From Bdellovibrionaceae bacterium UBA2339 (GTDB taxonomy: Bacteria > Bdellovibrionota > Bdellovibrionia > Bdellovibrionales > JAMPXM01): 64,000 nt of DNA. How positions within the stretch are numbered: the first letter of the stretch is position 1; the number at the start of each line of letters is the position of its first letter. The notes beneath the pieces were generated by a model that was not told the DNA's origin, did not search any database, and saw only the letters and a list, made by a program, of their open reading frames with translations. Of the stretch, positions 10,537-62,030 are shown in pieces. The stretch is taken from assembly GCA_002344785.1 (NCBI GenBank), contig DDUL01000006.1, positions 2,534 through 66,533 of the forward strand, read 5' to 3'. A program made the position numbers and the translations under genes.

Positions 10537-10758
10537 AGCCTACCTTGAGTTGCCGTTAGGCCTATCGATCTTGAAGGTTCAGCAGTGGGTGCGTGAACAT
10601 TCCACGCCCTACTCAAAGCATGGAACAACACACACTTTGACTCAAAGACTTTCGGCTCGCCACAAAGCCAAGCGGCGTCTAGACTTGGGTCGAAGAGCTG
10701 CATCGCTTTTGACCCACGGATCAGGACCAGAATTTATGCGCAAAAAAGAAGGCCTTCG

Positions 10759-16207: not shown

Positions 16208-18003
16208 CGTGAACTCCCCGTGCCTTCTTGAATTCTGTGATACGCATTGTGATGAGTCAGCTGAAAGACTTCACGAACACCCTTGCGCCATTGCACCTCA
16301 ACTTCAAATGGCCCTTTGGCGTCACCAAGTCCAAAATGCAAACGCGGATCGGACTGAGAGTTGAAGGTGTTGGTCGGATAAGCCAGTGCAACACGCTTCC
16401 ACCCGTCGGCGCCGCGAAGCTCGACAAGACTTCCCCAAGTGGCAGGACGCCCCGCCCGATTGCGAAGCTCGACGCCGAGCCAATCTCCCACCTGCTGAGT
16501 TTGGTTCACATACAACATGACGGGTGCGGCACGATTGACGACCACTAAGTCCATCCGCCCATCGTGATTGAAATCAAGCGAGGCAACACCGTAACCATCT
16601 TCAAGATCTGTTACGCCTGAGGCGCGCGCATGATCCTCAAAGCGTCCGCCATCCTGCTGAACGAACAAACAGCTCGCTTGGAAGCTTGAGAGTTGGCGTC
16701 TCGCCGTGGACGGATAATCAATGCTCGGATCCAAGGCGCGCAAAAATGCCGGGATGTCGGTGGCCATCGCGCGCGCATGCCAGAGTGAGCCCGCCTGAGC
16801 TTCAGTCGCACCACGACCGCGAAAGCGGCCATTCACCACAAACAAATCCAAACGCGAATCATTATCGAAGTCGGCCCAGCGTCCCGACCACGTCCACCCG
16901 CAGTTTCCCGTTCCTGTAGAGCGCGAAGCATCGAAGAACCCGCCCTCAGAAGATCGAGTCCACAGCACATTGTTATAGGCCATAAACGGAGGCGCAGAGA
17001 TGTTGCCAACGTACAAATCCAACAATCCATCGCCGTTCCAATCGCCGACATCCGTATTCATGCCGTTGAGGCCATGAAAACGCCTTGGGATGTACTGATC
17101 CGTCACGTCGATGAAGCCCTCTGGGCGATTCAACACCAAACGATCAAACTGATAATCATTGGCTTGATAGAAATCCAGTCGCCCGTCCGCATCGACATCA
17201 AAGAGACTAAAGTTGTTGGCGTAGCTACGAGGCAGATGAGCGATGCTGCGATGTGCTTCCGCGGCGGCTCGAAACTTTCCCGTGCCATCCCCCCACAAGA
17301 TCTGACTCTGTCCTCCCGTCTGTGAAAGCCAAGTCGATCGAAGACGCGGAGTTCGTGGAATTTTCTCCCGCAAATCATCTTCGAACCAATAATTCGCAAG
17401 CATCACGTCCAGGTGGGAATCGCCATCCAAATCGCCGACGTTCAGTCCAACCGCATTGGAGCACACGCCGCCAAATGCGTCGGGAATTTCAGCAAACTGC
17501 GGTGGACCAGCTCGCTGAACTTGCACGAACACTTGATGGCATCCATAGCGCGACATCAGCAGATCAGCTCGTCCATCGCCATTGACATCCGCCGCGATCA
17601 CTCGGGAAACCATGTCACCGGCGCTGAGCCGCCAAGCTCGCGTCACATCTTGCCAGCGTCCGCTGCGTGAACCTTGAAAGATCCGCACTCCAACTTCTTG
17701 ATCGGGACTTGTGAGCACCAGATCTAACTCACCGTCCCCATCTAAATCCGCGACAGCGACGGAAGGATAAATCGCATTGAACTCGAGCACGGCCCGAGGT
17801 GCGTGAGGATTCGGAAAAGCCAGTTGGTGAGTGAAGTGCAATCCGCTTGGCGCCGCCATCTCGGCGAAACTCAAATGTGAAACTTGAGCCGGTCTTCGCG
17901 GACCACCTCCGCCCGGCACATCACGAAGCGCTTCGCGCCCCCAAAGAGTGGCAATGAGACTCAAACCCACGAGCGCCGGTAAGAAGATATCGCGTATTGC
18001 CAC
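16204..18003 (-). CDS. CRTAC1-family protein (FG-GAP/VCBS repeats plus ASPIC/UnbV domain), secreted or anchored
   Basis: 599 aa with an N-terminal signal or anchor. At least six D-x-D/N-x-D-G repeats (ADVNGDGRADLLM, GDLDGDSHLDVMLAN, FDVDADGRLDFYQAN, GDWNGDGLLDLYVGN, ADFDNDSRLDLFVVN, LDFNHDGRMDLVVVN). The C-terminal WLGVELR...GSLVELR...NSQSDPRLHFGLG matches an UnbV_ASPIC pattern. GTG start. Confidence 0.85.
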   Translation of the reverse strand: MAIRDIFLPALVGLSLIATLWGREALRDVPGGGGPRRPAQVSHLSFAEMAAPSGLHFTHQLAFPNPHAPRAVLEFNAIYPSVAVADLDGDGELDLVLTSPDQEVGVRIFQGSRSGRWQDVTRAWRLSAGDMVSRVIAADVNGDGRADLLMSRYGCHQVFVQVQRAGPPQFAEIPDAFGGVCSNAVGLNVGDLDGDSHLDVMLANYWFEDDLREKIPRTPRLRSTWLSQTGGQSQILWGDGTGKFRAAAEAHRSIAHLPRSYANNFSLFDVDADGRLDFYQANDYQFDRLVLNRPEGFIDVTDQYIPRRFHGLNGMNTDVGDWNGDGLLDLYVGNISAPPFMAYNNVLWTRSSEGGFFDASRSTGTGNCGWTWSGRWADFDNDSRLDLFVVNGRFRGRGATEAQAGSLWHARAMATDIPAFLRALDPSIDYPSTARRQLSSFQASCLFVQQDGGRFEDHARASGVTDLEDGYGVASLDFNHDGRMDLVVVNRAAPVMLYVNQTQQVGDWLGVELRNRAGRPATWGSLVELRGADGWKRVALAYPTNTFNSQSDPRLHFGLGDAKGPFEVEVQWRKGVREVFQLTHHNAYHRIQEGTGSSR

Positions 18004-18057
18004 GACTCCATCTCAAATCGACTTCGCAAAGTGGTCAAGTCGCAACGAAATCTAAAC

Positions 18058-21000
18058 TTAGAGTGAACCGTCCGGGCTGATCTCCCTGAGATAGAGCGCA
18101 TTCTGACCTCGATAAGTCGTGAACACTCCACCGCAGGTCAGACGCGAAGCCGACGCATTCCAACCCAATGCGTACACCGTCGAGTTAAATCCATTCGCAC
18201 CACTCGCGGGACTGAGTGTGGTGTCGAGACTTCCGTCATCCAAGCGAACTCGCGCCAGCCGGTTGGCCGCCTGTCCACGATAAGTGGTGAACTGCCCGCC
18301 CACGTAGAGATGCGTGCTATCCAAATCCAGCGTCCAGGCCGTCGCGGCCACGCCATTGCCTCCGCTCGCAGGATTGAAAACGAGATCGACACTACCATCA
18401 GAGCGATGAATCTTCGCCACGCGATTCGCCGTAACACCTCGGTAAGTCGTGAAGGCACCGGCCAAATACAACCAGTCACCCGAGCGGCGAATGGCATACA
18501 CGATGCCGTTGGCCCCTGTGGTGACGGAGTGGAAAGTCGCGTCCAGAACTCCGCTCGTCGAATTCACTTTTGCCAGACGAGTCACAGCCGTGCCGCGATA
18601 GTTTCCGAAACTTCCACCGATGTAAAGATCAGCACCATCGAGCCAGAGCGAGTAGACAATGTTGTTCGTGCCATTGCCGCCACTTGCCGGATTGAAACTT
18701 GTATCCAGGACACCTGTCTGCGCATGAACTTTGGCGACACGATTGGCCGTCGCGCTTCTGTAACTGGTGAAATTCCCGCCCACATAGAGGGTCAGGCCGT
18801 CGGCACTCAGCTGCAAGGCCCGAACTTCTCCACTCGTTCCATTGCCTCCGCTCGATGGGTTGAACGTCGTATCAAGCGCCCCTGTACTCAAACTGACTTT
18901 GGCCACGCGATTCGCTACTGACCCACGGTAACTCGTGAACGCGCCTCCTAAGTACACCGCGTCTCCTGAAGCCGAGAGAGCGTAGACGGTGTTATTGGTT
19001 CCATTCGCTCCCGACTGGGGAGAGAAAGTCGTGTCGACGGATCCGTCGGCGGCTAAGCGCGCGATGTTTCGCGCCGTGATCTCAGGTGGACCCGCTGTAA
19101 ACGGGCCACCCACAAAGATCTCGTCGTCCGAGGCCACGCGACTCAAATCCATCGCGTACACCGCATTGTTCACCAAGGTGGCCCCGCTTGCGGGCGAGAT
19201 GTTGAGATCCGCATCGCCCGTCGCCGTGTCGATTCGCGCCAGGTAGCTGGCTGCGGCTCCACGATAGGCGACGAAAGTTCCGCCAATCCAAAGCGAACTT
19301 CCCTCTAAGCCCATAGCGTAAACTCCGCCTGAACTCAGACCGTTGCCTCCGGTCGCGGGATTGAAAGTCGCATCGACGGAGAAGTCCGCGCGTGAGATCT
19401 TCGTCAATCGATTGACCGTGGTGCCTCGATAAGTCGTGAAATCCCCGCCCACAAATAAATGCGTGGCATTGATGGCGAGCGATCGAACGTTATTGTTCAC
19501 GCCATTTCCGCCCGTGCCAGGATTGAAGCTGGTGTCCAATGCACCCGTGATCCCGTCAATCTTCGCCAAGCGATTCGCCACCAAAGTTCGATAGGCGGTG
19601 AAGCTTCCACCGATGTAGACATCACGGCCATCCAACGCAATCGCCAAAACCGTGTTGGCCGCGCCATTGTCACCGCTCTGCGGGCTAATCGTCTGATCAA
19701 GAGCGCCTGTGTCTCGGTGCACTTTGGCGACTCGATTGGCAATCAGACCATGATAGGCCGTAAACGCTCCGCCGAGCCAAATCGAGGTTCCGTCCATAGC
19801 CAAAGTGTTGACTGTACCACCGGCACCATTTGCACCTGTTTGCGGTGAGAACGTGGCATCAATTTGGCCCGTCGCCAGACTAATCTTGGTCACTCGATTG
19901 GCGATCGCACCACGATATCTTGTGAAGGCACCGCCCAACCAAACGCTATCGCCATCGACGAGGATCGCGTTGACGGTGTTATTCGTTCCGTTGGCGAGAT
20001 ATTGCGAATTGAAACTCAAGTTCAAGGACCCATCGGCATTGATCAGCGCGATCCGGTTCGCAATGAGACCTCGGTAGGTTGTAAACGCCCCACCCACTAA
20101 GACTTGTCCACTGCTCAATCTGACAACGGCATTCACCGTGCCGTTGAATCCGCTGCTATACCCGGACTCTATGCGCGACCCATCACTGGGTTTGATTTTC
20201 GCGATATAGCGTGTGGTGTAGCGACTAAAGCCGCTAAACGATCCACCTACCAATTTGCCGCCGTCTGTAAGGTTCAAGACCGACCACACTGTGCCGTGCG
20301 CGAATTGATCCAGCAACAGATCGTAACTCACTTGCGCCGTGATCGTACCAAACAAACCGTCATCCATAGAGAGTTCAACTTCGCGCGTGCCATTCGCGCC
20401 AAAGCTGGTCGCCGCAAATCGATAGGTGCCGTTGGGTTCGCAAACGATCGCCGTCGGACCGCCCACATCACCGGTGTAACTGATGTTGATCAATCTCCCA
20501 GCCTCACATGCGCCAATGATGGGCTGATCAATTTCGGTCGTCACTAAACCATTGGCCGGCGATGTGATCGTCAAAGTCGGCGCCGCAATGTCCACAAGCC
20601 ATCCGGTCGCATGCGGAACCACCACAGTGTTGCCTGCGAAGTCTCGGACTCGCATATGCAAATAGTAAGTTGCGCCAATGCTAAGACTCAAACCCGTTAC
20701 CTGAAAGGGGGACGAGCCCGCTTCGGTCCATGTCACCACATCCGATTGCGCCGCACCTGATGTGCCGGTACCGATCGCGTACTCATAAGTGTCGACACCA
20801 CTTTCATCGTCGACTGCATCCGCATTGAATGTGACCCAAGGTGAGGCCGTCGTCGAATTGTAAGTCGCCGGGTAGCTTGCGCCAACAGTCCAAGTCGGAG
20901 CCAACGTGTCGTGCCAAATGTCGTCCGACACGCAAGCCGACTCATTTAGAGCTGCGTTCCTAAACTTCACATAGACTTCATTGAGCGAATTCGTCGAAGG

Positions 21001-23592
21001 CAAGGTCCACGCACGCGAAGTTGCATAAGCCTGCCAAGTTCCGCCGCCGCCACAACCCGCGGTGTTGGTCACATACATCTGCGTGGCACCGGACGCCGCA
21101 AGTGTGAGCGTGACGGAAGTGCTCGTCACCGCCTCAGCTCCCGCGGCAATCGAAAGACTCACGCTCGTCGGCACGGCCGTGTCCTTCACGAAACTTCGCG
21201 ACGCGCTTCCCACGTTGCCGACTAAGTCCGTTTGCGAAGCGGTGAGCGAAACCGTGCCATCTGCAACGCCGGAGAGATCCAGTACAACACTATAGCTTCC
21301 CGAACTACAGGTCGTCGTCGCGCTGATGGCGCCGCTGATCGCGACACTGCTGCCCGATTCACTGCATGTTCCGGCCAAAGTAAATGCCGAGGCCAATGCA
21401 ACGTTGATCGTACTGCCCGCGGCCGGCGAAGCGATGGAGAGCGTGGGGGCAACCGTGTCCTTGGTGAATGCGCGCGTTGTGGAACTTGAATTGCCAGCAT
21501 CATCCGTCTGCGAAAGCGTTAAACTCACGTTGCCATCGGCGACACTCGTAAGATCCAAAGTCGAGCTCATCGTGCCGCCAATGCAAAGCGCCGAGGTCGA
21601 GAGCGCACCTGAGACACTCACGCTCAGACCAGCTTCGCAACTGGCCTCGACGGCAAATGCCGCCGCCTCGCTCGCGTCCATGGCGGTTCCCGCCAGCGGT
21701 GAAGTCCAAGCCAACGAAGGCGCGAGCGTGTCTTTCGAGTAAGTGCGGGACACACTCGTTGAGTTCCCAGCGGCATCCGCATGCGCAACGTTCACCGTCA
21801 CGCTGCCATCCGCTGATCCTGACAAATCAAGATTGGCCGACCAAGCCCCGCTCATGCAGGTGACACTGCCCGAGGCCGCGCCCGAGAAGCTCACATCACG
21901 ACCGTTTTCCGAACAGCTTCCGCTCATGATCCAGTTCGATGCATTGGCGGAATTGATCCAAGCGCTCGCTAAGGGTGCCGCGATCGAGAGTGTCGGCGCG
22001 CTGACATCCTTGTTGAAGCTGCGACTCGCACTGCCGCTATTCCCTGCAACATCCGACTGCGTGAAGTTCAACGTCACATTGCCATCGCTCACCGAGGTGA
22101 GATTCAGATCCACCGACCAAGTTCCCGAATTACAAGTCGTCGACGAAGTCACCGCACCCGTCACACTCACGCTGCGCCCGGACTCCGAGCAGGTGCCACT
22201 GACAGTGAAAGCCGCCACGTTCGATGGCGTGATCCAAGATCCAGAGGCTGGCGAACCCACCGCCAACGTCGGCAGCACGGTGTCCTTTGTGAAATTGCGA
22301 CTGACGGGATCTGCCGCTCCACCCGATGCATAGCTGTGATTCACAGTCAGTGAAATCAGGCCGTCGCTCACGCCACTGAGGTTCAGAGAACTCGACCACT
22401 GCCCTGATGAACAAGTCGCTGAAGCCGACACGGCACCCGAGATCAACACCGGCTGACCTTCGGCACCACAATCACCGCCGACCGTCCACGCGGTGGCATT
22501 GGTCGCGTTCACGTAAGTTCCGGCTGAAGGCAAAGTGAACGTCAGCACAGGCTGAGCTTGATGAACAAAATTTCGTGTCGCCGTCGCCGACGAGTTCCCC
22601 GCCGCATCCTGCTGAATCGCCGAAATGCTCACGCTGCCGTTCGGTGCTGAACTAAAATCCAAATTCAACGACCAGCTTCCGCTTGAGCAAGTCGCCGTTC
22701 CCGCCGCGTCGCCTGTGATCACCACAGTTCCATCTTCCGAACACGTGCCACCGACCGCAAAAGCCGCGTGCTGAGTTTGGTCGATCACAGTTCCTGCGGC
22801 TGGCGAAGTGATCGCCACCGTCGGCGCGACCGTATCCTTTTGCAGTTCGCGCGTGATCACACTCGCGGCATTCCCCGCCGCATCGACATGACGAAACTCC
22901 AAATTCACCGCGCCGTCCGTCGCCGACGAAACATCGACAGCCCAAGTGAAACTTCCCGAGTTGCAAGGCACTGAGCTTGATCCCTGCGGACCTACCACAC
23001 TGACGTAGCGTCCGCTTTCGCTACAAGTTCCACTCACCGCCAAGGCCGTCGCATTTCCCGAGTTCACCCAAGACGATTGCACCGGCGTGCTGACACTCAA
23101 CGTGGGCGCGATGTTGTCGTGAGTGATGTTCACCGACAGACAATCTGAAGTCGGTCCACCAAAGCCACCGTTGCGAAACTGCGCGTAGAGGGTGTTCACC
23201 GCGTTGGCTTGCGTGAGCGTGTACTCAAAGGGCGATCGAATTTGTTGCCAAAGCCCCCCGCGCGTACATCCAGGGATCGTGGTCACGTACATCTCGGTCA
23301 TGTTGGCACCGGTGATTTGCACCAGCACGTTCAAACTCTGCGTGTAGTAAACACCTTGCTCGAGTTTGCCGTTTTCAAGTTTGACGTTGGCGCGAAACGG
23401 AGCGGGCAAGGCCGGACCGTCTTGAGGCGCTTCTTCCTCTTGGTAACAGCCGGTCAAAGAAGCCAAGAAAAGCAGGCCGAGCCAAAGGGCGCGCGCGTGA
23501 AGAGAAAATAATGGGCAAATTGGGCGGCGGATGGCGCAAGCCAAAGCCTGGGAAGCTGTCGTGAAATCGAAAAACGGACCGCGTGACGACAT
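18058..23592 (-). CDS. giant surface lipoprotein/adhesin: Ig-like repeat array plus FN3-like module plus delta-60-repeat beta-propeller region
   Basis: 1844-aa uninterrupted ORF with lipobox LASLTG|C at aa 43-49. Seven tandem modules of about 92 aa have a conserved pattern (SP..G.W.N..N...F.VSGTCSE.G..V.V.GA......C.SG.WS..L.LS...DG.V.......D.AGN......R.F.KDT.AP). About 14 C-terminal units of about 52 aa match the delta-60 repeat pattern (G.NG.V.A......(L/V)(Y/W).GG.FT.YRG..ANR.AK......G.LD..F.P). Confidence 0.85.
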   Translation of the reverse strand: MSSRGPFFDFTTASQALACAIRRPICPLFSLHARALWLGLLFLASLTGCYQEEEAPQDGPALPAPFRANVKLENGKLEQGVYYTQSLNVLVQITGANMTEMYVTTIPGCTRGGLWQQIRSPFEYTLTQANAVNTLYAQFRNGGFGGPTSDCLSVNITHDNIAPTLSVSTPVQSSWVNSGNATALAVSGTCSESGRYVSVVGPQGSSSVPCNSGSFTWAVDVSSATDGAVNLEFRHVDAAGNAASVITRELQKDTVAPTVAITSPAAGTVIDQTQHAAFAVGGTCSEDGTVVITGDAAGTATCSSGSWSLNLDFSSAPNGSVSISAIQQDAAGNSSATATRNFVHQAQPVLTFTLPSAGTYVNATNATAWTVGGDCGAEGQPVLISGAVSASATCSSGQWSSSLNLSGVSDGLISLTVNHSYASGGAADPVSRNFTKDTVLPTLAVGSPASGSWITPSNVAAFTVSGTCSESGRSVSVTGAVTSSTTCNSGTWSVDLNLTSVSDGNVTLNFTQSDVAGNSGSASRSFNKDVSAPTLSIAAPLASAWINSANASNWIMSGSCSENGRDVSFSGAASGSVTCMSGAWSANLDLSGSADGSVTVNVAHADAAGNSTSVSRTYSKDTLAPSLAWTSPLAGTAMDASEAAAFAVEASCEAGLSVSVSGALSTSALCIGGTMSSTLDLTSVADGNVSLTLSQTDDAGNSSSTTRAFTKDTVAPTLSIASPAAGSTINVALASAFTLAGTCSESGSSVAISGAISATTTCSSGSYSVVLDLSGVADGTVSLTASQTDLVGNVGSASRSFVKDTAVPTSVSLSIAAGAEAVTSTSVTLTLAASGATQMYVTNTAGCGGGGTWQAYATSRAWTLPSTNSLNEVYVKFRNAALNESACVSDDIWHDTLAPTWTVGASYPATYNSTTASPWVTFNADAVDDESGVDTYEYAIGTGTSGAAQSDVVTWTEAGSSPFQVTGLSLSIGATYYLHMRVRDFAGNTVVVPHATGWLVDIAAPTLTITSPANGLVTTEIDQPIIGACEAGRLINISYTGDVGGPTAIVCEPNGTYRFAATSFGANGTREVELSMDDGLFGTITAQVSYDLLLDQFAHGTVWSVLNLTDGGKLVGGSFSGFSRYTTRYIAKIKPSDGSRIESGYSSGFNGTVNAVVRLSSGQVLVGGAFTTYRGLIANRIALINADGSLNLSFNSQYLANGTNNTVNAILVDGDSVWLGGAFTRYRGAIANRVTKISLATGQIDATFSPQTGANGAGGTVNTLAMDGTSIWLGGAFTAYHGLIANRVAKVHRDTGALDQTISPQSGDNGAANTVLAIALDGRDVYIGGSFTAYRTLVANRLAKIDGITGALDTSFNPGTGGNGVNNNVRSLAINATHLFVGGDFTTYRGTTVNRLTKISRADFSVDATFNPATGGNGLSSGGVYAMGLEGSSLWIGGTFVAYRGAAASYLARIDTATGDADLNISPASGATLVNNAVYAMDLSRVASDDEIFVGGPFTAGPPEITARNIARLAADGSVDTTFSPQSGANGTNNTVYALSASGDAVYLGGAFTSYRGSVANRVAKVSLSTGALDTTFNPSSGGNGTSGEVRALQLSADGLTLYVGGNFTSYRSATANRVAKVHAQTGVLDTSFNPASGGNGTNNIVYSLWLDGADLYIGGSFGNYRGTAVTRLAKVNSTSGVLDATFHSVTTGANGIVYAIRRSGDWLYLAGAFTTYRGVTANRVAKIHRSDGSVDLVFNPASGGNGVAATAWTLDLDSTHLYVGGQFTTYRGQAANRLARVRLDDGSLDTTLSPASGANGFNSTVYALGWNASASRLTCGGVFTTYRGQNALYLREISPDGSL
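18061..20295 (-). repeat. intragenic tandem array: about 14 delta-60-type repeats of about 156 bp (aa about 1100-1844)
   Basis: Recurring GGxFTxYRGxxANR(V/L)AK(I/V)...G(A/V)LDxxFNPxxGGNG in the translated ORF. Confidence 0.8.
21175..23115 (-). repeat. intragenic tandem array: 7 Ig-like modules of about 276 bp (aa about 160-806 of the adhesin)
   Basis: Periodic recurrence of KDT(V/L)APT(L/V)...SGTCSE...DGxV...AGN in the translated ORF. The array is flanked on both sides by a related module of about 78 aa (..MYVT....GC..GG.WQ... at aa about 84-160 and about 822-900). Confidence 0.8.
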
Positions 23593-23957: not shown

Positions 23958-24137
23958 ATGGCAAAGAAGGGCAAAGTTCGAATCATCACGCTGGAGTGCA
24001 CTGAGGCCCGCAAAGAAGGCAAATCGCCCAGCCGTTACACCACAAAGAAGAACACGCAGACTCACCCGGAGCGTCTCGAAAAGAAGAAGTACAATCCGAG
24101 CTTGCGTCGTCACACCATGCATCGCGAATTGAAGTGA
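23958..24137 (+). CDS. rpmG: 50S ribosomal protein L33
   Basis: 59 aa: [59 protein letters not shown]. Start at ATG 23958, internal to ORF-track entry 23931. Confidence 0.95.
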
Positions 24138-24226: not shown

Positions 24227-25345
24227 CTAGGGTTTTCGGGCCACGCAAAGCTTCGCAAAGAATCCCGTGCCCGACTCAGAGTCCTGCACTTCAAAGCCTG
24301 CCTCGGCGACAAGCTTCGCCAATGGTTCAGCCAAGTAGCTCTTGTAGAATGGCTCGTGATACTGGATCGGAAATTCGTCGAGCGCTTGTTGAAGTTCGGG
24401 CCGATCTCCCGTTTGCAAGCTATCGACGATGGCTAAGACGCCTCCGCTTCGCAATACGCGATAGGCTTCAGACAAAACGCGACGTCGTTCCTCCAAGGGC
24501 AATTCATGAAAGAGAAAGACCGAGGCCACGGCATCGAAGCTGGCGTCGCGAAACGGAGTCGCTGCCGCATCGGCCTGCACATAATCAATCCCATCAAAGT
24601 TTTGCCAAGGCAGATCCTTCAAGTTCTGAGCAGCGACACGCAAATACGGCGAACTCAAATCCAGTGCCGTCAGCTGAGCCTGCGGCAAAGCCATGCGCAA
24701 AAAGCGCGTGCTGCGTCCCGTTCCCGCGCCAAGTTCTAGAACTCGCGTCGGCTTGGCGCGCACAAGCGGCGGCAACAGCAGTCTGCGCATGGCATCCGCC
24801 GCCCCAGCGAACAAGACCTCCACTTGGTGATCGTAAAGTTCAGCGGACTCGCGCGACAAATATCCATCGATTTGAAAATGGAAATTTCGACGATAGTACT
24901 CAGGCACATTCTCGGCCAGAGCTTGTGCTGCGGGAGAAAAGGCTTTCGATTCGCGCTGATGCTTCTGACGTCGACTCTTGAATCCGGTCCAAAACAGTTT
25001 CGGCATTCGCGCCAAGTGCGAACGCGGGCTTTCAGGAAGTAACACCTGCCACGGATAGACTTGCTCGCGAATATTTTGAAGATCCTTTTCGAGAAGCTCC
25101 ACCAGCGCTCGGCGAGCCGCGCGAAACAATTCGGGTCGATCCGTCGGTAGCGGAGGTCGCTGGCCAGATGCCAAGAATTCCACAATCGGTAAAAAGCCGC
25201 CTTCGAGGGTGAAAACCAGAGATCGGCCATGCGCCCATGCACGAAGCGCTTGTCCCCAGCCTGCCTGCAAATTTTCACGAAGTTGAGGCGTCGCCTCGCC
25301 GCTCAGCCACTTTCGAGCCCGCGCCTGTGTTTCCACTTTTGGCAT
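24227..25345 (-). CDS. class I SAM-dependent methyltransferase
   Basis: 372 aa. SAM motif I VLELGAGTGRSTRFL, post-I LDLS, and motif LRSGGVLAIVD. The N-terminal roughly 190 aa is helical with YYRRNFHFQIDGYLS. Confidence 0.85.
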   Translation of the reverse strand: MPKVETQARARKWLSGEATPQLRENLQAGWGQALRAWAHGRSLVFTLEGGFLPIVEFLASGQRPPLPTDRPELFRAARRALVELLEKDLQNIREQVYPWQVLLPESPRSHLARMPKLFWTGFKSRRQKHQRESKAFSPAAQALAENVPEYYRRNFHFQIDGYLSRESAELYDHQVEVLFAGAADAMRRLLLPPLVRAKPTRVLELGAGTGRSTRFLRMALPQAQLTALDLSSPYLRVAAQNLKDLPWQNFDGIDYVQADAAATPFRDASFDAVASVFLFHELPLEERRRVLSEAYRVLRSGGVLAIVDSLQTGDRPELQQALDEFPIQYHEPFYKSYLAEPLAKLVAEAGFEVQDSESGTGFFAKLCVARKP

Positions 25346-25509
25346 TTGCGCCCTCCCTTTGAAGCACCTTGAAAGCCCTCAATAGCTCCTGGATGTTGAT
25401 TTTATCCGAGTTCGCGGCCCTCGACCAAAACTTCAACCCGAGGTGACTTTTTCGTAAAGTTTTGCTGAACTTGGAGGCGGGACCTCAAGTCCATCCTGAG
25501 GAGGATCAA

Positions 25510-26181
25510 ATGTCGAAATGTCGCTTGGCCGCGATGGCCCTCGCTTCGATTTCCATAGGTTTAGTGGCCGGTCCGCTCACGGCCAATGCAGCAACGCCAA
25601 GTGCTGCGGCTAAGCCAGCTCTGAAAACGGGTCTTGATGCTCAGATTCCTCAGGGAGTCGCCGCCACGGGTCGCCCAACTTCTCCCTTTTCGTGCGCGGA
25701 TGTTCGCCGAGCTGCGATGCGACTCTCCGCCCACGCGACGAACTTGGCCAATCGGAACACCACTCGGACACCCACGGGCGGCCCCTACAAGCGCCTGGAG
25801 GTCAGCTGCGCCGTGGCCGGTGGCGCCTTCTGCAGCGTGGAACAAAAAAGCGAACTTCGCGTGGCCTATGACCCCAAACACCCTGACGCGGATGGCACGG
25901 GCTATGTTCGCTTCCCTGTCGTGAACGTCGGAACTGAATTCGCGGGCGTCAACTCCGCAGCCACCGAACTGAAGCTGCTCTCCAGTCAAAATGTTTGCGG
26001 CACCGCGAGCATCTCACAAGGCAATGGCGTGTTGATCCGCTACCTGCCCGACTTCGATGTGATCAGCGACACCATCGCCTTTGGGGCCGATGGCAAAATC
26101 GTTTCGTGGACGCGCCTGAACAAGGACGGAAAAATCACGAACATGGCTTTCAACGCCGACGGCAGCATCTCGGGGTTTTAA
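25510..26181 (+). CDS. secreted FlgC-like (flagellar rod protein-like) domain protein
   Basis: ATG 25510 lies 6 nt after GAGGAGGA. Sec-type signal MSKCRLAAMALASISIGLVAGPLTANA|A. The core carries RLSAHATNLANRNTTRTPTGGPYKR and YDPKHPDADGTGYVRFPVVNVGTEF, matching FlgC-type rod-protein motifs. This is followed by a non-FlgC tail of about 55 aa. Confidence 0.6.
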   Translation: MSKCRLAAMALASISIGLVAGPLTANAATPSAAAKPALKTGLDAQIPQGVAATGRPTSPFSCADVRRAAMRLSAHATNLANRNTTRTPTGGPYKRLEVSCAVAGGAFCSVEQKSELRVAYDPKHPDADGTGYVRFPVVNVGTEFAGVNSAATELKLLSSQNVCGTASISQGNGVLIRYLPDFDVISDTIAFGADGKIVSWTRLNKDGKITNMAFNADGSISGF

Positions 26182-26226
26182 TTTTTGCGACCGAAGAATT
26201 GTGGCTCATGAGTCACAACTTCGGCG

Positions 26227-27051
26227 TCAAAAACGATACGCGACACTGAAGCGCCCCAGCGTCCAACGTGGAAATAGTCTCACCACGCGAATCGCTTGTT
26301 CGACGGACTCGCGATCCTCGCGATCCGTCACGGCGTCTAGAAATGGCGCCGAATTCTTCGTGGTGATCAGCGGCTGAGCCCAACTGAAAAGATCAACGCC
26401 CCAACCCCAATGTGCCTGCTGCAAATTTCCCCAAAGTCGGCGATAGCCGATGCTTCCCACAACTCCCAGGGTCTGCAAATCCACCACATCAAGGCTCGGA
26501 TACACTCCACCGCTCAGTCGACTCAGCAGCGCATCGCCAAGGCGAATTTGAAAGCTGTTAAGGCTCAAGCCCCAGCGAAAATTCCAACCTTGAAGCGCAT
26601 TCGCCGATTCACCAATCGGACTGATGAAGTTCAGCTGCAGACGCTTTTCCGACATCGAACCCAAATCTTTCAAAATCCAAGGAACACTCACGCTGGCGCT
26701 GGCGTAATCCAACTCGACAGTTTCCCCCAGGACTTGCCCCTGCACGGCGACGCCCCACTTGCTCGGCAACAGCAGATCCAATGGAGCATACTGCAGGCGT
26801 ACAGCGCGCATAGATTCCATTTTGTTCGAGGCCACAGGCGGCTGAGAGGACGTGTCCACCGCCTCGCTTGCGGGCTCAGATTGCGCCGCCCCCGCCACAG
26901 TTACCAAACTCAGCGCCGAAGCAGTGAGCATCGCCATCATCACCAAGGCGAAGAACTGCTCGCCGCTTCTCAGGTATCGATTTGGGCTTCGATCATGGTT
27001 TTGAATTTTTCGAAGTTGTGTTTGTTGTCGCATGAGCTGGGATGAGGTCAT
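26227..27051 (-). CDS. hypothetical secreted protein, probable small outer-membrane beta-barrel
   Basis: 274 aa. Signal or anchor FFALVMMAMLTASALSLVTVAGAAQ. Alternating hydrophobic pattern and a C-terminal OMP-type signature ...FSVAYRF (terminal Phe). Confidence 0.5.
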   Translation of the reverse strand: MTSSQLMRQQTQLRKIQNHDRSPNRYLRSGEQFFALVMMAMLTASALSLVTVAGAAQSEPASEAVDTSSQPPVASNKMESMRAVRLQYAPLDLLLPSKWGVAVQGQVLGETVELDYASASVSVPWILKDLGSMSEKRLQLNFISPIGESANALQGWNFRWGLSLNSFQIRLGDALLSRLSGGVYPSLDVVDLQTLGVVGSIGYRRLWGNLQQAHWGWGVDLFSWAQPLITTKNSAPFLDAVTDREDRESVEQAIRVVRLFPRWTLGRFSVAYRF

Positions 27052-27188
27052 CGAGTGGGGCTCCTCCGTTGAGTCAGGAGAAGCTCTCAGGTCACAGCAC
27101 CAACTGGCAACCTCTTCTCAAAGCGTCAGGCCGCCCTCAGGCGGCCCGCTCAGAAACCCAAACTCTCATCTCGAGAATGCGAACTCGC

Positions 27189-28493
27189 TCACTGAGAAGC
27201 CGGAGCGCGCGCCGCCTCAGACTTCGCAGCCTTCTTTTGAGGCGAGGCTTGCCTTTGCGCCTTCGGTGCAGCGGGAGACTTCATCTGGATGGCCTCGACC
27301 GTCTCGCCTTGCGGACCAAACCAGACATCGACGACCTGCACGGACTTACCCTTGACGATCGCCGTACTTCGCTCGCGAAGTTCGGCGCGCGCGGCAACCG
27401 GAGTCACGATGTTCTTTTCATACTTCAATGAAATTTCCGTCAGCCCCTCGTCGGCCAAACTCTTAAGCTCTCCCGGATCTGAAACGCCGTTGGCGTTCGC
27501 GTCGCGCCAGAGCAGAAGCTTGCCGTAATTTTTGTCCTTCGAACTGATCTTTCTGTCTTTGTTGGAATCCAGCTTCGCCAGCGCATCAAAGCCATTGGCG
27601 ATCTTTCGCGACTCGTCCTCACCAAACAGCTCGTCTTTCTCCGAAATTTTGCCATCACCGTTTCGATCCATCGCCAAGATGGCCCAGTTTCCTGCCTCAG
27701 GCCAGTAGATGCTGCCTTTGGTGGGGCTCAAAGGAAAGCGGCTCACGGAAGTGAACTGCGGTCGCTCGTCGCCAAAGAAAACCATGATCGGCGAGAAGTA
27801 TCCGCCACAGAAACCGGTTTGCCCGGGGAAGGCCGAGCGAATTTCAAGTGAAGAGTGATCCGAGCTCAAAGCCCAAGTGGTTGACGACGACAACGGGCCT
27901 GTGTTGGCCATGTAAGTGCCGCCACTCACTCCTTCTTGAAAGAACGAAATCGAGCGAACTGGATGCGCCTGCGCCTTGATGGTCACTTCACCTTTTTCGG
28001 AAAGCGATTCTGTCACGCGAATACCGTCAGGGATCACCATGCTGATCACATTTCCCGCACGCGTGGCCCGAAGACCTGAAGTGCTCAGACCCGTCGCCGT
28101 AATCGGCACGCTTTGCTCGGTGTTGTCAGCCGTTGGAACGACCAAATCACCTTTGAACTGAACTTCGACCGACGCATCTTTGTCGTCGTTGGTTTTCAGA
28201 CCAATCGTCATCTTCACATTCGCATCGGGAGAAAGTGGATTCGCCACACTTCTCAAATTAGTGCCGAAGCAAGATGCATAGAAGCGCACCTGCAACGTCT
28301 TGGTCGCGTCATAGCTTCGCGCCAAGCTGCCATTCATGACGATGTCACTCATGTTCGCCGAAGGCGCCGGAAGCACATCACCGGCCCAAGATTTTTGACT
28401 GAAGTAGAATGAGGCCAAGAGCCCGGCGCTCATCAAGAAAAAGCGGAGCCAAACCATGCCACGCGAATCGATCGCGACTTGCACTTTCGCCAT
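27189..28493 (-). CDS. secreted protein with three EF-hand-like Ca-binding loops
   Basis: Start at ATG 28493 (GGGGGA SD 5 nt upstream) with signal VWLRFFLMSAGLLASFYFSQKSWA. Loops are DRNGDGKISEKDE, DSNKDRKISSKD and DANANGVSDPGELKSLADEGLTEISL...VDVWF. The C-terminus is a Lys/Ala/Pro-rich tail. Confidence 0.7.
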   Translation of the reverse strand: MAKVQVAIDSRGMVWLRFFLMSAGLLASFYFSQKSWAGDVLPAPSANMSDIVMNGSLARSYDATKTLQVRFYASCFGTNLRSVANPLSPDANVKMTIGLKTNDDKDASVEVQFKGDLVVPTADNTEQSVPITATGLSTSGLRATRAGNVISMVIPDGIRVTESLSEKGEVTIKAQAHPVRSISFFQEGVSGGTYMANTGPLSSSTTWALSSDHSSLEIRSAFPGQTGFCGGYFSPIMVFFGDERPQFTSVSRFPLSPTKGSIYWPEAGNWAILAMDRNGDGKISEKDELFGEDESRKIANGFDALAKLDSNKDRKISSKDKNYGKLLLWRDANANGVSDPGELKSLADEGLTEISLKYEKNIVTPVAARAELRERSTAIVKGKSVQVVDVWFGPQGETVEAIQMKSPAAPKAQRQASPQKKAAKSEAARAPASQ

Positions 28494-28521
28494 ATTGTCC
28501 CCCACGTCGCTTTCCACGAGC

Positions 28522-29493
28522 CTAAGGCCGTTTTCGGAAAGTGACTTCATAAGAAAGAATAGCAAGGTTCGTCGCTCGCCGACGAATTATCAGTTGCTCA
28601 ATATCGACACCGACCACCATGGGCGATTGAAAAGCTGAATTAGTCCAAGTACTTCGCACCAATTCGTAAGTTCCTTTAACAGACGCGCGTTCGCGCAAAG
28701 TGTATCGAACTGGTACAACTTTCGTCGCCATCATCATCACCGAAGCACCGCCCACAGGAGGCGCGAGTCGTAAAAACCGATCGGGATCCTGAGCCGAGAC
28801 TTGATCAATCGGAAAACGATAATCAAACACCCCACCCAAATTATTGGCGAGCAAGGTGTTGCCATCGTGAATGCCCAACCAAGATGGCTGGCGAGGCGGA
28901 ACTGTGGGGTCTTGGGTTTTGCCGGCGGGCTTCAACCACACAGGGGCAAATAACAAAAAGGCGTCGCCCTTCACCCAATGCGACCCAAACAGATTTTTCA
29001 TATAATCCAAGTACTGAAAGCCGCGAAACTCCAACTTCCCTGAAGTTCCAAGCGCCGTGGGCGGCTGACTTAAGTACATCGCGGCCGGATCGATCATCTT
29101 AAGTGGCGCATCTGTCGGCGAAGTCAGAAACGTGACTTCCTTAATCTTGCTGGTGGGAGAAATCGTCAAAGTTCTGGTTCGCAAATTCGTCGGAATGTTG
29201 GAGATCTCCGCATCCATATACAGATCAAAGAGATCTCGCCCCTCATCGTCCTTGATCGTCAGTGCCCCAAATGAAAGTGCAGCCTGACTCAAGTCGCGCC
29301 ACAAAAACTGGTCGATCACCACACCCGTCATGCGATCTTCAAGCTTGGCCGTAATGTTGCGAACCCGCTGTGTGTTGTCCAAAAACATATACATCAGAGC
29401 CACGACCACAATGAGGCCAATTCCAGTGGTCATCACCACTTCGGTGAGCGTGACGCCTCGCCGTGACCTGATCGGCAATGCGAACTTCATCAT
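28522..29493 (-). CDS. prepilin-type N-terminal domain protein (PilW/GspJ-like minor pseudopilin)
   Basis: 323 aa. N-terminus MMKFALPIRSRRG|VTLTEVVMTTGIGLIVVVALMYMF has Gly-1, Glu+5 and a hydrophobic helix. Its start makes an ATGA overlap with the upstream gene's stop. Confidence 0.7.
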   Translation of the reverse strand: MMKFALPIRSRRGVTLTEVVMTTGIGLIVVVALMYMFLDNTQRVRNITAKLEDRMTGVVIDQFLWRDLSQAALSFGALTIKDDEGRDLFDLYMDAEISNIPTNLRTRTLTISPTSKIKEVTFLTSPTDAPLKMIDPAAMYLSQPPTALGTSGKLEFRGFQYLDYMKNLFGSHWVKGDAFLLFAPVWLKPAGKTQDPTVPPRQPSWLGIHDGNTLLANNLGGVFDYRFPIDQVSAQDPDRFLRLAPPVGGASVMMMATKVVPVRYTLRERASVKGTYELVRSTWTNSAFQSPMVVGVDIEQLIIRRRATNLAILSYEVTFRKRP

Positions 29494-29936
29494 GAACCAC
29501 CACCGATGATGTAAGTGTAGTCGCGAGCCTCTTCACCGATTGACGGATGCTTGATGCGAACTCGTAGCCGGTAAGCACCCGGCACGAGCGCGTGGGGCTG
29601 CAACACAAAGCCGAGTCGACCCGCGCAATCCGGACACTGATCGACAGGCAATACGCGATCATCATCCCAGGCCCAAGGCAGCTTTGCCGGGTCCAAGAGA
29701 TTTGAAACATGCGTTTCCGATGTGTCGAAGTTCACCTGATACGAAGGCGCGTTCTTGATGATCGTTTGCAGCACGGACTGTAGGGCCTTTTCTCGACCCC
29801 GCGTCGCATTCACTTTTGAAGCTGCACTCAGCGTGGTCTGCGCCGAGGAGATCATCACGAAAATGGCGATACCCGAAATCGCCAAGGCCATAAGAAGTTC
29901 AACCAAACTCAATCCTCTCCGCGAGCGCCAGTTCAT
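29490..29936 (-). CDS. prepilin-type N-terminal domain protein (small minor pseudopilin)
   Basis: Start at ATG 29936 (MNWRSRRG|LSLVELLMALAISGIAIFVMI, Glu+5), with an ATGA overlap to the upstream 870-aa gene. The longer ORF-track start (30089) is rejected. Confidence 0.75.
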   Translation of the reverse strand: MNWRSRRGLSLVELLMALAISGIAIFVMISSAQTTLSAASKVNATRGREKALQSVLQTIIKNAPSYQVNFDTSETHVSNLLDPAKLPWAWDDDRVLPVDQCPDCAGRLGFVLQPHALVPGAYRLRVRIKHPSIGEEARDYTYIIGGGS

Positions 29937-32548
29937 AGCACCACCTCGCTGGAGAGAAACTTGATCTTGAGCCGCTGCGGTCGGCTCTTGCACGACGTGG
30001 CCGAAGCTCCTGGCAACAATCCACAGTCCGGATCGACGGTCGACCATTGCATAGGATTGGACTTGTCGCGCAGAGAGATCGGCAAACAACGGTACTGATC
30101 CGCCAATCGACTGAGATTGGGATAGGGATGCCAGAGCGGATTGTTGATATCAATGCCCGGGCAAGCGCTCGTGGTGCCATACAAAATTCCGAGTCGGCGC
30201 AACTCATCGATCGCCGACTGATTGTGAATGGAGCTCATCGTGATCCCGTGCCGCAGAGCCGAGTCATCAATGACCGAATTGAGCGCAATAATGGTCCCGA
30301 TGATTCGAAGCGGCCGATCCCGAGGCTCGATGGTCAGCAAGTCGCAAGTGAAAAAGCCCGCGACGACCTCGGCCGAGGCTTTGATTCGACACTCCGTCAC
30401 CGTGGAGTAAATCAAGAAGTCGCGCTTCGCCACCGGCGTCGCACTGGAATTGGCCGCATCCAATTCGAGGATGCCGTCGATGGGTCGATATCGCCACGAG
30501 TGCCGACTGGCCGCCGCAAAGGAAACATCCCAGGCCACTGGCGAGAACGAGCTCACCGGCGAACTTGGCGCGCAGGCTTCGTTCAAGGCCGCGTAGTCTT
30601 CGATGACATCCAAAGTTTCCGGAGGCACAGGAAGTTTGCCATCGGTGCGGGCAAAGCTTGTGGGCACGCCGTACTCTTTTTCGATAGTTCCAAAATCATA
30701 GGCGGAGTTACTGTCTTTATAATTGAGCGTGAGTGCGTTGTTGTAGCGAGATTTCGCCGGCTCTTTGTTCAAGTCGCGATTCTGATGGCCCTTGCTGAAC
30801 CCCACATCCAAGCCCCAGACTCGAGCGCGAAATCCCGTCAGCATGTTGAACTGATTCTCAACGCTCACCCTAACATCCACTTGATGCGGCTGATCCTTCA
30901 TATTGAAGACGACTTTAAAGACTTCAATGCGGATGCGCGGCGGATCCTTCTCGGCGGCAATCGCGCGATCGCGAAGCACCTTGAGATCATTGATCTCTTT
31001 GTTGATCGCGTTGATCTGCTTTTCCAAGGCCTCAGCCTTTTTGGGATCCTTTTCGTCTTCGAGTTTGTCTTTGAGTTTGTCTCGATCCTCTTCAAGGTCA
31101 TCAATGCGCTTGATGTAAATGTCTTTGTCCAAAAACTTCGGCGTCAGCACCACCGAGCCGCCGCGCCCTAAGTCCACGCGGACTCGCGCATTCTCGGCTT
31201 TGCTGGGATCCTTGGCGTATTGCTTCACGTAATTTTCATTGAAGCTTTCGATCTCGACGGTGGTCACGTAGTCCCCGCCTTTGACGATCGTCGGCTCCTG
31301 AACATGCGCGGAGTTCCCTCCGCTCTTATGATTGTGATCCACTTTGTGAGGCGTGGTCTGCTCACTGAAGAAATTCAATTCGGTCCAACTGAGTCGGAAA
31401 GTTTCCTGCGACATGTTCGAGGACATCGACTTCCACACCAGCGAAGAGTTGTCCGTCGCCGACAAATTGCTCAGCACTTGGTTTCGCCGAATGCACATTT
31501 GCAGAAGCGACGGATCCGGATTGTAGGCCGGGATGTCGCCGATCAAGGCCTGCAGACCGCGATCGAACTCACCATCTCGCTCCACGCCCGCCAACAAACC
31601 CGAATAGCCGCGAATCGAGGCGAAGTAGTCGTCTCCGGCGCCGCCAGCGGTTTGCGTGGCAAATGGCTGATCACCTCGGCGCAAGATGCCATTTCCAAGC
31701 ACGAGTTTTTCGACAAACGTCGCCGTCGGCGTGCGAAGTTCCTTCTCGATCGGAATATGCACGTCACGATTCACATACACGGGACTTTCAAAGCGAATGC
31801 CCCGCACTTGCGAGCGCTCATAGCCGACAACGGGAAACACATGATTGCCCGGCTTCAAATCCAAGGGCACGGGGCGATCCAAGTACAAATCGCGAGGCAA
31901 AATGAGCGTAAACGCCGATAGCTCTCGTGGCATGACCGCAAACTGCGTGACCAAAGTGACCTTTCGTTCTTCGGTACTTTCCGCATCGGCGATGGTGCCT
32001 GTGACCGTCAGCCGCACATAGCCCTCGCGCCCGCGAATCGGAAGGCGCAAATCCGACGTGCGCTGCACTTTGATTTCGAGTTTTGAAAGCTTACCGGCAC
32101 CTGACTGTTGCAGCGCCGAGGCCAAAGGATGTGAAACAGGAAGCGCTGAAGGCGTCAGTACCGTTGAGAATTCATCCAGCGTCACCGGGCTTCCCAATTT
32201 CAAATCGGGATTGGCGACCTTCAATTCATTGATGTAGGCCACCTGCGGTGGCGTCAGCAAAAGTCTTTCCGTGCTGCGAGGATGATCGAGCAAGCAAATC
32301 TCATCGCGCACCCAATTGTCCGTAAAGCACCAGCGCCGCTTCATACCGGCCGCGGTGTAATTCGCGACACTTTCCAAAACCGCTCGCGACAAAATCAAGT
32401 CGCTTCCGCGCTCGGCCGTATTCTTCAACGACGTCATGGTCTGCAACATCATATTGCCCGCGAAGATCGCGACGCCGGCGATCACCACAACTATCGGCAA
32501 CACATTGGCACGTTTGGATTTCAAACTCGCACGCGCCGCCTCGGTCAT
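29933..32548 (-). CDS. large envelope protein with pilin-like N-terminal anchor (PilX_N-like) and central charged coiled coil
   Basis: The 915-codon ORF is open from TTG 32680. I place the start at ATG 32548 (MTEAARASLKSKRANVLPIVVVIAGVAIFAGNMMLQTM...), which is uncertain. It has a single N-terminal hydrophobic helix without the G-x-x-x-x-E prepilin motif. A KED-rich segment IKRIDDLEEDRDKLKDKLEDEKDPKKAEALEKQINAINKEINDLK is present. It is the first gene of the pseudopilin operon. Confidence 0.6.
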   Translation of the reverse strand: MTEAARASLKSKRANVLPIVVVIAGVAIFAGNMMLQTMTSLKNTAERGSDLILSRAVLESVANYTAAGMKRRWCFTDNWVRDEICLLDHPRSTERLLLTPPQVAYINELKVANPDLKLGSPVTLDEFSTVLTPSALPVSHPLASALQQSGAGKLSKLEIKVQRTSDLRLPIRGREGYVRLTVTGTIADAESTEERKVTLVTQFAVMPRELSAFTLILPRDLYLDRPVPLDLKPGNHVFPVVGYERSQVRGIRFESPVYVNRDVHIPIEKELRTPTATFVEKLVLGNGILRRGDQPFATQTAGGAGDDYFASIRGYSGLLAGVERDGEFDRGLQALIGDIPAYNPDPSLLQMCIRRNQVLSNLSATDNSSLVWKSMSSNMSQETFRLSWTELNFFSEQTTPHKVDHNHKSGGNSAHVQEPTIVKGGDYVTTVEIESFNENYVKQYAKDPSKAENARVRVDLGRGGSVVLTPKFLDKDIYIKRIDDLEEDRDKLKDKLEDEKDPKKAEALEKQINAINKEINDLKVLRDRAIAAEKDPPRIRIEVFKVVFNMKDQPHQVDVRVSVENQFNMLTGFRARVWGLDVGFSKGHQNRDLNKEPAKSRYNNALTLNYKDSNSAYDFGTIEKEYGVPTSFARTDGKLPVPPETLDVIEDYAALNEACAPSSPVSSFSPVAWDVSFAAASRHSWRYRPIDGILELDAANSSATPVAKRDFLIYSTVTECRIKASAEVVAGFFTCDLLTIEPRDRPLRIIGTIIALNSVIDDSALRHGITMSSIHNQSAIDELRRLGILYGTTSACPGIDINNPLWHPYPNLSRLADQYRCLPISLRDKSNPMQWSTVDPDCGLLPGASATSCKSRPQRLKIKFLSSEVVL

Positions 32549-32899
32549 CGATCGCACGAATCCGAGGAGGACCGCTGAGCGCAAACGGCGCGCTTCAGCT
32601 CGCTGCTTGACGCGTTGATAAACTGCTGAGTTCAAAGCTGCTCCCCAAATGCAAATACATGCATTCGGACCCGCCGCCAAACGAGTCCACGTTCGACCTG
32701 TCCCTCTATCCTATGCATCTCTTTGCAGGAGGAAAACCCTACGACTCAAAATAAGACTCGACCTTCGTCGCAAGAGCCATAGAGCACTCGGCGGCCCGGC
32801 CTCGGGGCCTGATGTTTGTCTCTTTCATCGCCGTGAACGCAATTCGCCGCGATTTACCTTGGCGGCTTGAAACTTTGCCCGCTAGCTTTGAATCTCAAA

Positions 32900-61897: not shown

Positions 61898-62030
61898 TTC
61901 AGTTTTCTGCACTTTACGAAAGCATGAGGGCCTTCGACTTGGAAAGCGCAAAGTGCGTAACGCAGAGTTTCTTGGTTCGTTTATTTGGTCGTTTATTTGG
62001 TCGTTTCGTTTCGCATTTCAATTGAGGAAC

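Follow-up and report, generated by a model that had tools for sequence, protein, structure and literature searches.

The window analysed here is a 64-kb stretch (64,000 nucleotides) of contig DDUL01000006.1 from Bdellovibrionaceae bacterium UBA2339, and the gene in question, on its forward strand, encodes a 223-aa protein that we read as a paralogue of the flagellar proximal rod protein FlgC with a Sec-type signal peptide. An initial annotation made from the letters alone had described the product as an FlgC-like rod protein with a Sec signal and no flagellar neighbours, and had proposed a polymerising rod module rerouted through Sec. Four parts can be told apart in the protein: a signal peptide comes first, a variable linker follows, residues 60-163 make up an FlgC-like core, and the C-terminus is a beta domain that is conserved; these and the elements preceding the gene are located as follows.

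25444..25470, + strand: upstream motif TGAC-N15-TGCTGAAC, a putative promoter or regulatory site
25497..25504, + strand: Shine-Dalgarno sequence GAGGAGGA, 5 nt 5' of the ATG, read from the sequence
25510..26181, + strand: coding sequence of the 223-aa Sec-type FlgC paralogue (long form), stop codon included, from the open reading frame (ORF) call
25510..25590, + strand: predicted signal peptide, aa 1-27, MSKCRLAAMALASISIGLVAGPLTANA, with positive charges, a hydrophobic core and an A-x-A motif
25591..25686, + strand: variable Ala/Pro/Thr-rich linker, aa 28-59, with a predicted local distance difference test score (pLDDT) <50 and with length and sequence that differ among orthologues
25687..25998, + strand: FlgC-like core, aa 60-163, with sequence, profile and fold matches to FlgC
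25999..26178, + strand: C-terminal beta domain, aa 164-223, six predicted strands, pLDDT ~90 or more, found in long forms only

Comparisons of sequence, profile, and predicted structure all identify the protein as a genuine FlgC homologue that is predicted to adopt the FlgC fold; its motifs had led the initial annotation to propose the homology. The core opens with C62, at the start of a helix (residues 62-80) that bears N-L-A-N-x-x-T-T-R-T, and continues through GGPYKR, a beta-hairpin bounded by C100 and C108, YDPKHPDADGTGYVRFP and a second helix (140-159) to C163. The rod N-terminal signature N-[LIVM]-[AS]-N-x-x-[ST] can be read by eye as NLANRNT, and two longer motifs, SN(I/L)AN-x-x-TTRTP-x-GGPY(K/R) and Y-x-P-x-HPDA-x3-GYV-x-(F/Y)P, are common to FlgC and the family to which the protein belongs. 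The NCBIfam model for FlgC, TIGR01395, matches residues 69-151 over profile positions 15-112 of 137 with E = 6.3e-15, at a score of 55.6 bits that lies under the curated equivalog cut-off of 102.1 bits. A Pfam scan of the 223-aa protein gave no match whatever, with PF00460 (Flg_bb_rod) and PF06429 (Flg_bbr_C) absent even at E ≤ 10, so that of the rod-protein hidden Markov models (HMMs) proposed as a check, the NCBIfam model recognises the protein and the two Pfam models do not. When the protein was compared with PDB sequences by phmmer, the significant matches were all FlgC chains (1.8e-9, 2.1e-7, and 6.9e-4), and hhalign aligned a profile of 41 family members to columns 17-132 of 150 of the canonical FlgC profile with a probability of 100% and E = 1.3e-41.

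Predicted structures point the same way. An AlphaFold2 model of the long form, built from 8 sequences, has block-mean pLDDT values of 75-96, mostly ≥90, over residues 61-223, and its topology consists of helix 62-80, four strands within 95-136, helix 140-159, and a six-stranded C-terminal domain. The best Foldseek match of this model in the PDB is Salmonella FlgC of the assembled proximal rod (7cg0; E = 4.6e-7), with a template modelling (TM) score normalised to the target of 0.63 and a root-mean-square deviation (rmsd) of 3.1 Å over 109 columns. Borderline and very poor alignments to LolA, together with the other remaining Foldseek matches of the long form, have an rmsd of at least 13 Å and were disregarded. 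A model of a short-form relative, P0191, made from 30 sequences, has a mean pLDDT of 92.8, and its significant matches are FlgC chains only (TM 0.63-0.69, rmsd 2.3-2.8 Å).

The translation start leaves little room for a different product. In-frame ATG, GTG, or TTG codons of the 223-aa ORF lie at positions 1, 6, 9, and 19, which fall within the hydrophobic N-terminus, and the next is codon 70; because there is none between codons 19 and 70, a signal-less product that retains the invariant residues F60, C62, D64, and R66 is excluded. The initial annotation was therefore right that no such form can be made, and right about the Shine-Dalgarno sequence; conservation among orthologues sets in at F60/C62, ahead of any alternative start. 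A protein identical to the 223-aa product is deposited at NCBI as HRK08474.1, a "hypothetical protein" from a metagenome-assembled genome (MAG) of Pseudobdellovibrionaceae, a group that the NCBI taxonomy places in Bdellovibrionales, Bdellovibrionota. The ratio of nonsynonymous to synonymous substitution rates (dN/dS) of the whole gene is 0.058, 0.045, and 0.047 against orthologues of 94%, 87%, and 77% identity, and in the same comparisons it falls to 0.013-0.031 in the folded part and stands at 0.12-0.20 in signal and linker. This is a working gene under strong purifying selection, with dN/dS of ~0.05.

A hydrophobic, signal-like N-terminus is present in every orthologue examined, and the Sec-type signal first noticed in this one protein is thus a conserved trait. 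Scored by a crude rule over family representatives, signal peptides were called in 116 of 139 non-canonical members and in 2 of 11 canonical FlgC proteins. The candidate cleavage sites in the protein of the window follow A20 or A27, and AlphaFold gives the signal peptide (aa 1-27) a pLDDT <50. From these sequence features we infer Sec export and signal cleavage of the 223-aa protein; taken together, its identity as an FlgC paralogue and the Sec export route are well supported. Within the linker, between the signal peptide and the FlgC-like domain, a short motif, PGPFG-x2-S-x-LL, recurs in the long-form homologues L012, L013, L014, L017, L018, P0004, and P0015; the protein of the window has only a faint counterpart, ALKTGLD.

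The four cysteines that had been counted in the mature part are C62, C100, C108, and C163 (codons 25693-25695, 25807-25809, 25831-25833, and 25996-25998). Across 41 diverse family members C163 is invariant and the other three are ≥90% conserved. In the long- and short-form models alike, the first cysteine sits at the first turn of helix 1, the last lies 1-4 residues past helix 2, the middle pair flanks the hairpin turn, and the two helices are equal in length; they would pair antiparallel, as in the matched FlgC rod structures. The conservation of the cysteines and their position at helix and strand ends in the models suggest two disulfides, C62-C163 and C100-C108, that would lock the fold in the oxidising periplasm.

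The C-terminal region differs from what had been described. It was said that the C-terminal helix of FlgC is not conserved; the helix itself is retained in place (residues 140-159), and what is gone from this protein is the RxYEAN motif, where ATELKLLSSQ stands at the position of FlgC TRAYEANVSA, together with the last ~18 residues. RxYE is kept in short-form relatives. The presumed Gly/Asp/Asn-rich tail proves to be a conserved beta domain of 60 aa, predicted to be folded with pLDDT >90 and marked by residues invariant among long forms (Y178, D187, T188, F191, D194, G195, W200, R202, G207, F214, D217, and G218). It has no Pfam match, and its matches among PDB sequences are non-significant only.

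Canonical FlgC is present in six copies in the proximal rod, between FlgB and FlgF. Canonical flgC operons are common in the Bdellovibrionales, where the gene order is flgB-flgC-fliE-fliF-fliG-fliH-fliI-fliJ behind a gene for a sigma-54 activator, and where FlgC has 145-147 aa, no cysteine, and 73-86% identity across MAGs. The protein of the window shares the fold of Salmonella FlgC (PDB 7cg0 and 7bin), with its helical hairpin and beta-hairpin region, but departs from FlgC in several respects. Sec-type proteins lack the first ~16 and last ~18 residues of FlgC, and with them the type III N-terminus and the outer part of each D0 helix; they have a signal peptide where FlgC has its type III export N-terminus, four conserved cysteines where FlgC has none, and a C-x(3-7)-C hairpin in place of the variable insert of FlgC. 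To this the protein of the window adds its C-terminal beta domain, a score below the TIGR01395 cut-off, the lack of a Pfam match, and a location outside any flgB-flgC-fliE operon. It is not an orthologous FlgC. The likeliest history, judged from sequence profiles, is a duplication of flgC within the Bdellovibrionota: short-form and mixed profiles score Bdellovibrionales FlgC at 118-122 bits and the best canonical FlgCs of the exhaustive search described below at 85-112 bits.

The gene belongs to a large family with short and long forms, which goes beyond what could be seen from this one sequence. An exhaustive profile search covering 1.84 billion cluster representatives returned 1279 clusters at E ≤ 0.001, 333 at E ≤ 1e-10, and 24 at E ≤ 1e-30; a word-indexed search returned 8 relatives only. 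Among the best 150 clusters, ~120 have a hydrophobic signal-like N-terminus and at least 2 cysteines, ~15 are canonical FlgC (no Cys and an N-terminus of the ...ISASGL... type), and the remainder are mostly fragments. Short forms (~120-135 aa) consist of a signal peptide, a Cys, a helix ending SNIANVNTTRTPEGGPYKRK, a C-x3-5-C hairpin, YEPDHPDA-x3-GYV-x-YP-x-I, a helix with EM..MI.A.R.YE, and then a Cys and the end of the protein. In long forms (~170-240 aa) an extra beta domain of ~60 aa comes after the fourth Cys, and the signal peptide is often followed by a linker. Variants carry helical C-terminal extensions with further cysteines, and one member, P0131, has a lipobox. At locus L010 a short-form gene (10001-10369) is overlapped at its downstream end by a second gene on the + strand (10366-10758), whose product, a 130-aa signal-peptide protein, keeps the N- and C-terminal helices and cysteines of the family without the FlgC core, matches the family HMM weakly (E = 9e-5), and has a helical Cys-containing extension resembling those of P0084 and P0177.

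Mean column identity over the 41 family members is 24%. Invariant among them are N78, N81, G90, H124, D126, G131, P136, and C163, and at least 90% conserved are C62, T85, R86, G91, C100, C108, Y120, P122, A127, V133, and E143; in 101 representatives, the first Cys and GGPY are a median of 28 residues apart. The protein of the window carries every family-defining element, that is, the signal peptide, the first Cys, 28 residues to GGPY, the C-x(3-7)-C hairpin, HPDA...GYV.(Y/F)P, the helix, and the fourth Cys. TIGR01395 matches all 41 members (best E = 2.7e-26), with a few weak matches to the FlgG, FlgF, or FlgB models, and Pfam Flg_bb_rod and Flg_bbr_C match 16 and 6 of the 41, respectively (E ≤ 0.01 for the former). 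Since the 41 members match no Pfam or NCBIfam models other than these rod-protein ones, there is no dedicated family model.

All members that bear an organism name come from Bdellovibrionota (Pseudobdellovibrionaceae, Bdellovibrionaceae, Bdellovibrionales, Bdellovibrio sp., and Bdellovibrionota MAGs), and no cultured-strain name occurs among the matches listed. A scan of GTDB species genomes with an 8-sequence alignment found nine long-form loci, all in Bdellovibrionales or Bdellovibrionaceae MAGs and all long-form relatives; a metagenome scan with a short-form alignment found mostly canonical FlgC, with a Sec-type gene at 1 of 80 loci (L098). Databases label members as "FlgC", "rod C-terminal domain-containing protein", or "hypothetical protein", and the Joint Genome Institute (JGI) uses "flagellar basal-body rod protein FlgC". 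In the literature we found no paper on a Sec-type FlgC paralogue, including FlgC-like proteins and Bdellovibrio FlgC with a signal peptide, and the family is seemingly undescribed.

The upstream motif listed above has the family consensus TGAC-N15-TGCTCAAC and lies 45-85 nt 5' of the start codon at 10 of 16 loci, in 7 independent lineages (the window, L003, L012, L013, L015, L016, and L017); 0.12 loci are expected in shuffles. The site in the window is the sole match on either strand of the 64 kb, and the motif is absent 5' of canonical flgB operons. Because it is unique in the window, kept in seven lineages, and absent at flgB operons, the FlgC-like gene seems to have its own conserved, putative control element. 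No sigma-28 promoter (TAAA-N14-17-(G/C)CGA(T/A)A) or sigma-54 promoter (TGG(C/T)A-N6-7-T(T/G)GC) was found in the upstream regions of 16 family genes, and a sigma-70 scan upstream found none. One candidate sigma-28 element in the upstream region of the window, TAAAGTTT, was rejected, having no matching sigma-28 -10 element. Some resemblance of the motif to promoters of the extracytoplasmic function (ECF) sigma-E type was noticed, but we make no claim to that effect.

The surroundings of the gene are those of the chromosomal backbone, with greA, rpmG, uvrC, uvrB, cysS, gltX, carD, recG, SPFH/NfeD genes, and others in the window. The nearest features are these.

23958..24137, + strand: rpmG (ribosomal protein L33), read from its translated sequence, a conserved chromosomal landmark upstream
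24227..25345, - strand: S-adenosylmethionine (SAM)-dependent methyltransferase, 372 aa, divergent to the FlgC-like gene; Pfam Methyltransf_11 and Methyltransf_25, UbiE-like
26182..26233, strand not assigned: stable hairpin between convergent genes, RNA fold -23.2 kcal/mol, z = -3.55
26227-32680, - strand: convergent gene run of five products, including a pseudopilin-like/outer membrane protein (OMP) cluster

As the initial annotation had noted, the gene has no flagellar neighbours: the ~40 large ORFs of the window match no flagellar Pfam family, and no flagellar neighbour occurs at ~15 distinct family loci. Long forms have a conserved setting just downstream of rpmG. Of the neighbours, the methyltransferase is conserved most widely: it lies beside the FlgC-like gene, in divergent orientation, in 9 lineages, in which identity of the FlgC-like protein falls as low as 42-52%. 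In lineages without it, rpmG is directly upstream of the FlgC-like gene; this synteny may be no more than inherited gene order. The convergent run encodes a 274-aa OMP-like protein ending ...AYRF (no Pfam match), a product of 458 aa whose EF-hand-like match is weak (PF26745 SPM is found in its orthologue), another of 323 aa, a 199-aa ORF that carries a prepilin N-methylation motif (PF07963), and a 915-aa protein; synteny of this run is seen in L007 and L011 only. The question raised earlier, whether signal peptide and neighbourhood are both conserved, has a divided answer, in that orthologues keep the signal peptide and only close relatives keep the pseudopilin/OMP neighbourhood. The pseudopilin/OMP cluster is syntenic only in relatives of ≥77% identity, plus one gene in L017, and a functional link of the FlgC-like gene to it was rejected for now on that ground. 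With a U-tract 5' and an A-tract 3' of its stem, the intergenic hairpin departs from the simple intrinsic-terminator rule on both strands.

Rod, hook, and filament proteins are the textbook substrates that cross the flagellar type III channel unfolded and fold only on assembly, and axial proteins normally hold their D0 helices unfolded until then. Our preferred explanation, which we hold tentatively and which as a whole statement is somewhat more apt to be wrong than right, is that the protein is a periplasmic FlgC paralogue, a folded mimic of a rod subunit that assists, caps, or regulates the predator's own basal body. Its Sec signal peptide would take the place of the flagellar type III N-terminus and send it to the periplasm, where it would fold alone as a soluble, pre-locked, monomeric copy of a rod subunit, with C62-C163 joining the two helices where helix 1 begins and helix 2 ends, and C100-C108 closing the beta-hairpin that stands in for the variable insert of FlgC. 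It would not be a stoichiometric, type III-exported building block of the rod. Because nearly all conserved FlgC motifs are kept, we propose that it binds a partner that normally recognises FlgC or the rod end, candidates being neighbouring rod subunits, the MS-ring collar, the rod cap, or the cell-wall hydrolase of the latter, and that it could act on the basal body, for example, during flagellum shedding and rebuilding. The flagellar role is a guess, and several points weigh against it. The gene has no genomic linkage to flagellar genes and its upstream motif is not at flgB operons, so that only ancestry ties it to the flagellum; the conserved FlgC motifs may be kept merely as fold determinants; the canonical flgC operons were found in the same order and are not tied to this MAG; and, as regards origin, the long-form profile alone favours P0070, an FlgC of unknown origin, over Bdellovibrionales FlgC.

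The same molecule could instead have been co-opted away from the flagellum, either as a predation-related periplasmic or secreted factor, which would target the envelope or the basal bodies of the prey from within the prey periplasm, or as a general periplasmic scaffold or binding protein reusing the FlgC fold. This is a possible but rather doubtful account. It draws on the confinement of all named members to a predatory phylum, on the divergence of the family at 24% mean column identity compared with the 73-86% of canonical FlgC in the same order, on architectures that vary (short, long, helically extended, with a lipobox in P0131, and core-deleted in the neighbour at L010), on the dispersal of the genes in housekeeping contexts without flagellar linkage, and on the gene having a conserved upstream motif of its own. 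Strong purifying selection and a stable site by rpmG, however, suit a housekeeping protein of the envelope better than an arms-race effector; a Sec signal by itself would take the protein no further than the periplasm of the predator, and the sequence shows no evident signal for secretion across the outer membrane; and an unrelated function would not need the near-complete keeping of the conserved FlgC motifs.

The module could also polymerise as a rod protein does, rerouted through Sec, and self-assemble into a periplasmic rod, ring, or filament, as the initial annotation had imagined. Its predicted fold equals that of FlgC in the assembled rod, short forms retain most canonical FlgC helix residues, including EM..MI.A.R.YE, and spirochaete FlaA is a precedent, being a structural protein of the flagellum that reaches the periplasm through Sec. 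We nevertheless consider this reading improbable, given the loss of ~16 residues from the N-terminal D0 helix and of ~18 from the C-terminal one, conserved cysteines that flank the hairpin at either end and would lock it as a closed unit, the loss of RxYEAN from this protein, a confident compact monomer predicted by AlphaFold from shallow alignments, and the lack of cap or scaffold partner genes nearby. As axial D0 helices normally stay unfolded until assembly, a shortened and pre-locked hairpin disfavours ordinary rod-type polymerisation. Hardly credible, finally, is the idea that the gene is the true flgC of this genome, annotated from the wrong start, or else a flgC pseudogene in decay, even though JGI pipelines give several members the name "flagellar basal-body rod protein FlgC" and a second, canonical flgC is not demonstrated for this MAG. 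No in-frame start lies between codons 19 and 70, and conservation begins at F60/C62, before any alternative start; the TIGR01395 score falls below its cut-off, with no Pfam rod-domain match; the first ~16 and last ~18 residues of FlgC are gone; dN/dS of 0.05 excludes a pseudogene; more than 100 clusters have the same signal-plus-cysteine layout; and the same order abounds in canonical FlgC, whose sequence and operon are different and highly conserved.

Returning to a periplasmic rod-subunit mimic acting on the predator's own basal body, the nearest parallels are FlgI, FlgH, FlgA, FlgP, FlgT, and the E-ring proteins FlgY/MotE, which are likewise exported by signal peptide and act in the periplasm around the rod. 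FlgI requires an intramolecular disulfide. None of those proteins shares descent with an axial rod protein, and their genes mostly belong to flagellar clusters or lie close to one, whereas the Sec-type FlgC family is of axial-protein descent and its genes lie away from flagellar loci; the protein of the window has no sequence or fold match to any of them (Pfam, NCBIfam, and Foldseek against the PDB). FlgY and MotE carry signal peptides (PMC13023049). Another point of comparison is the plug of gamma-proteobacterial flagellar relics, which fills the place of the rod after ejection and for which its discoverers argued non-type III export, with rod proteins among their candidates (PMC6424402). A Sec-exported rod mimic fits that description in principle. 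The plug, however, is located in the P-ring, through which the distal rod protein FlgG passes and not FlgC, and it was seen in gamma-proteobacteria, where the Sec-type FlgC family was not found; the comparison is an analogy only. A more specific version of the mimic, in which Sec-delivered copies dock on the exposed rod end or emptied basal-body ring and cap or plug it when the flagellum is shed on prey entry, before rebuilding, is a long shot. If it were true, these capping mimics would be the first molecular candidate for the non-type III "plug" kind of flagellar relics.

A Sec signal and four fold-locking cysteines on a copy of a rod protein would break the type III rule, if export and disulfides are confirmed, and the FlgC fold is probably able to stand alone as a soluble module. 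If the protein acts on the basal body, it would give a handle on how predators shed and rebuild their flagellum and on the sealing or regulation of a decapitated motor; if it acts elsewhere, it would be a clean example of the co-option of a machine part. The labels "FlgC" and "hypothetical protein" distort flagellar gene counts in Bdellovibrionota genomes.

Some further observations concern other parts of the window. A 915-aa adenylate/guanylate cyclase with a CHASE2 sensor (46048-48795, - strand) and a tyrosine recombinase of the phage-integrase family (37832-38755, - strand) showed no link to the FlgC-like gene. In a Bdellovibrio sp. MAG (L112), a short-form family gene (8001-8369) and a 320-aa gene lie between carD and recG, within a block, uvrC-uvrB-cysS-gltX-carD...recG, that is the same as the one at 48.9-64 kb of the window; the equivalent slot of the window (57955-63962) has no short form and is taken instead by a 762-aa subtilase. 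Compared with locus L003, where the order is greA...inositol-phosphatase...rpmG, the window has additional genes at 14966-23592 (- strand), which encode an RnfD-like membrane protein, a 599-aa FG-GAP/ASPIC protein, and a 1844-aa protein with Ig-like and DUF5122 beta-propeller repeats.

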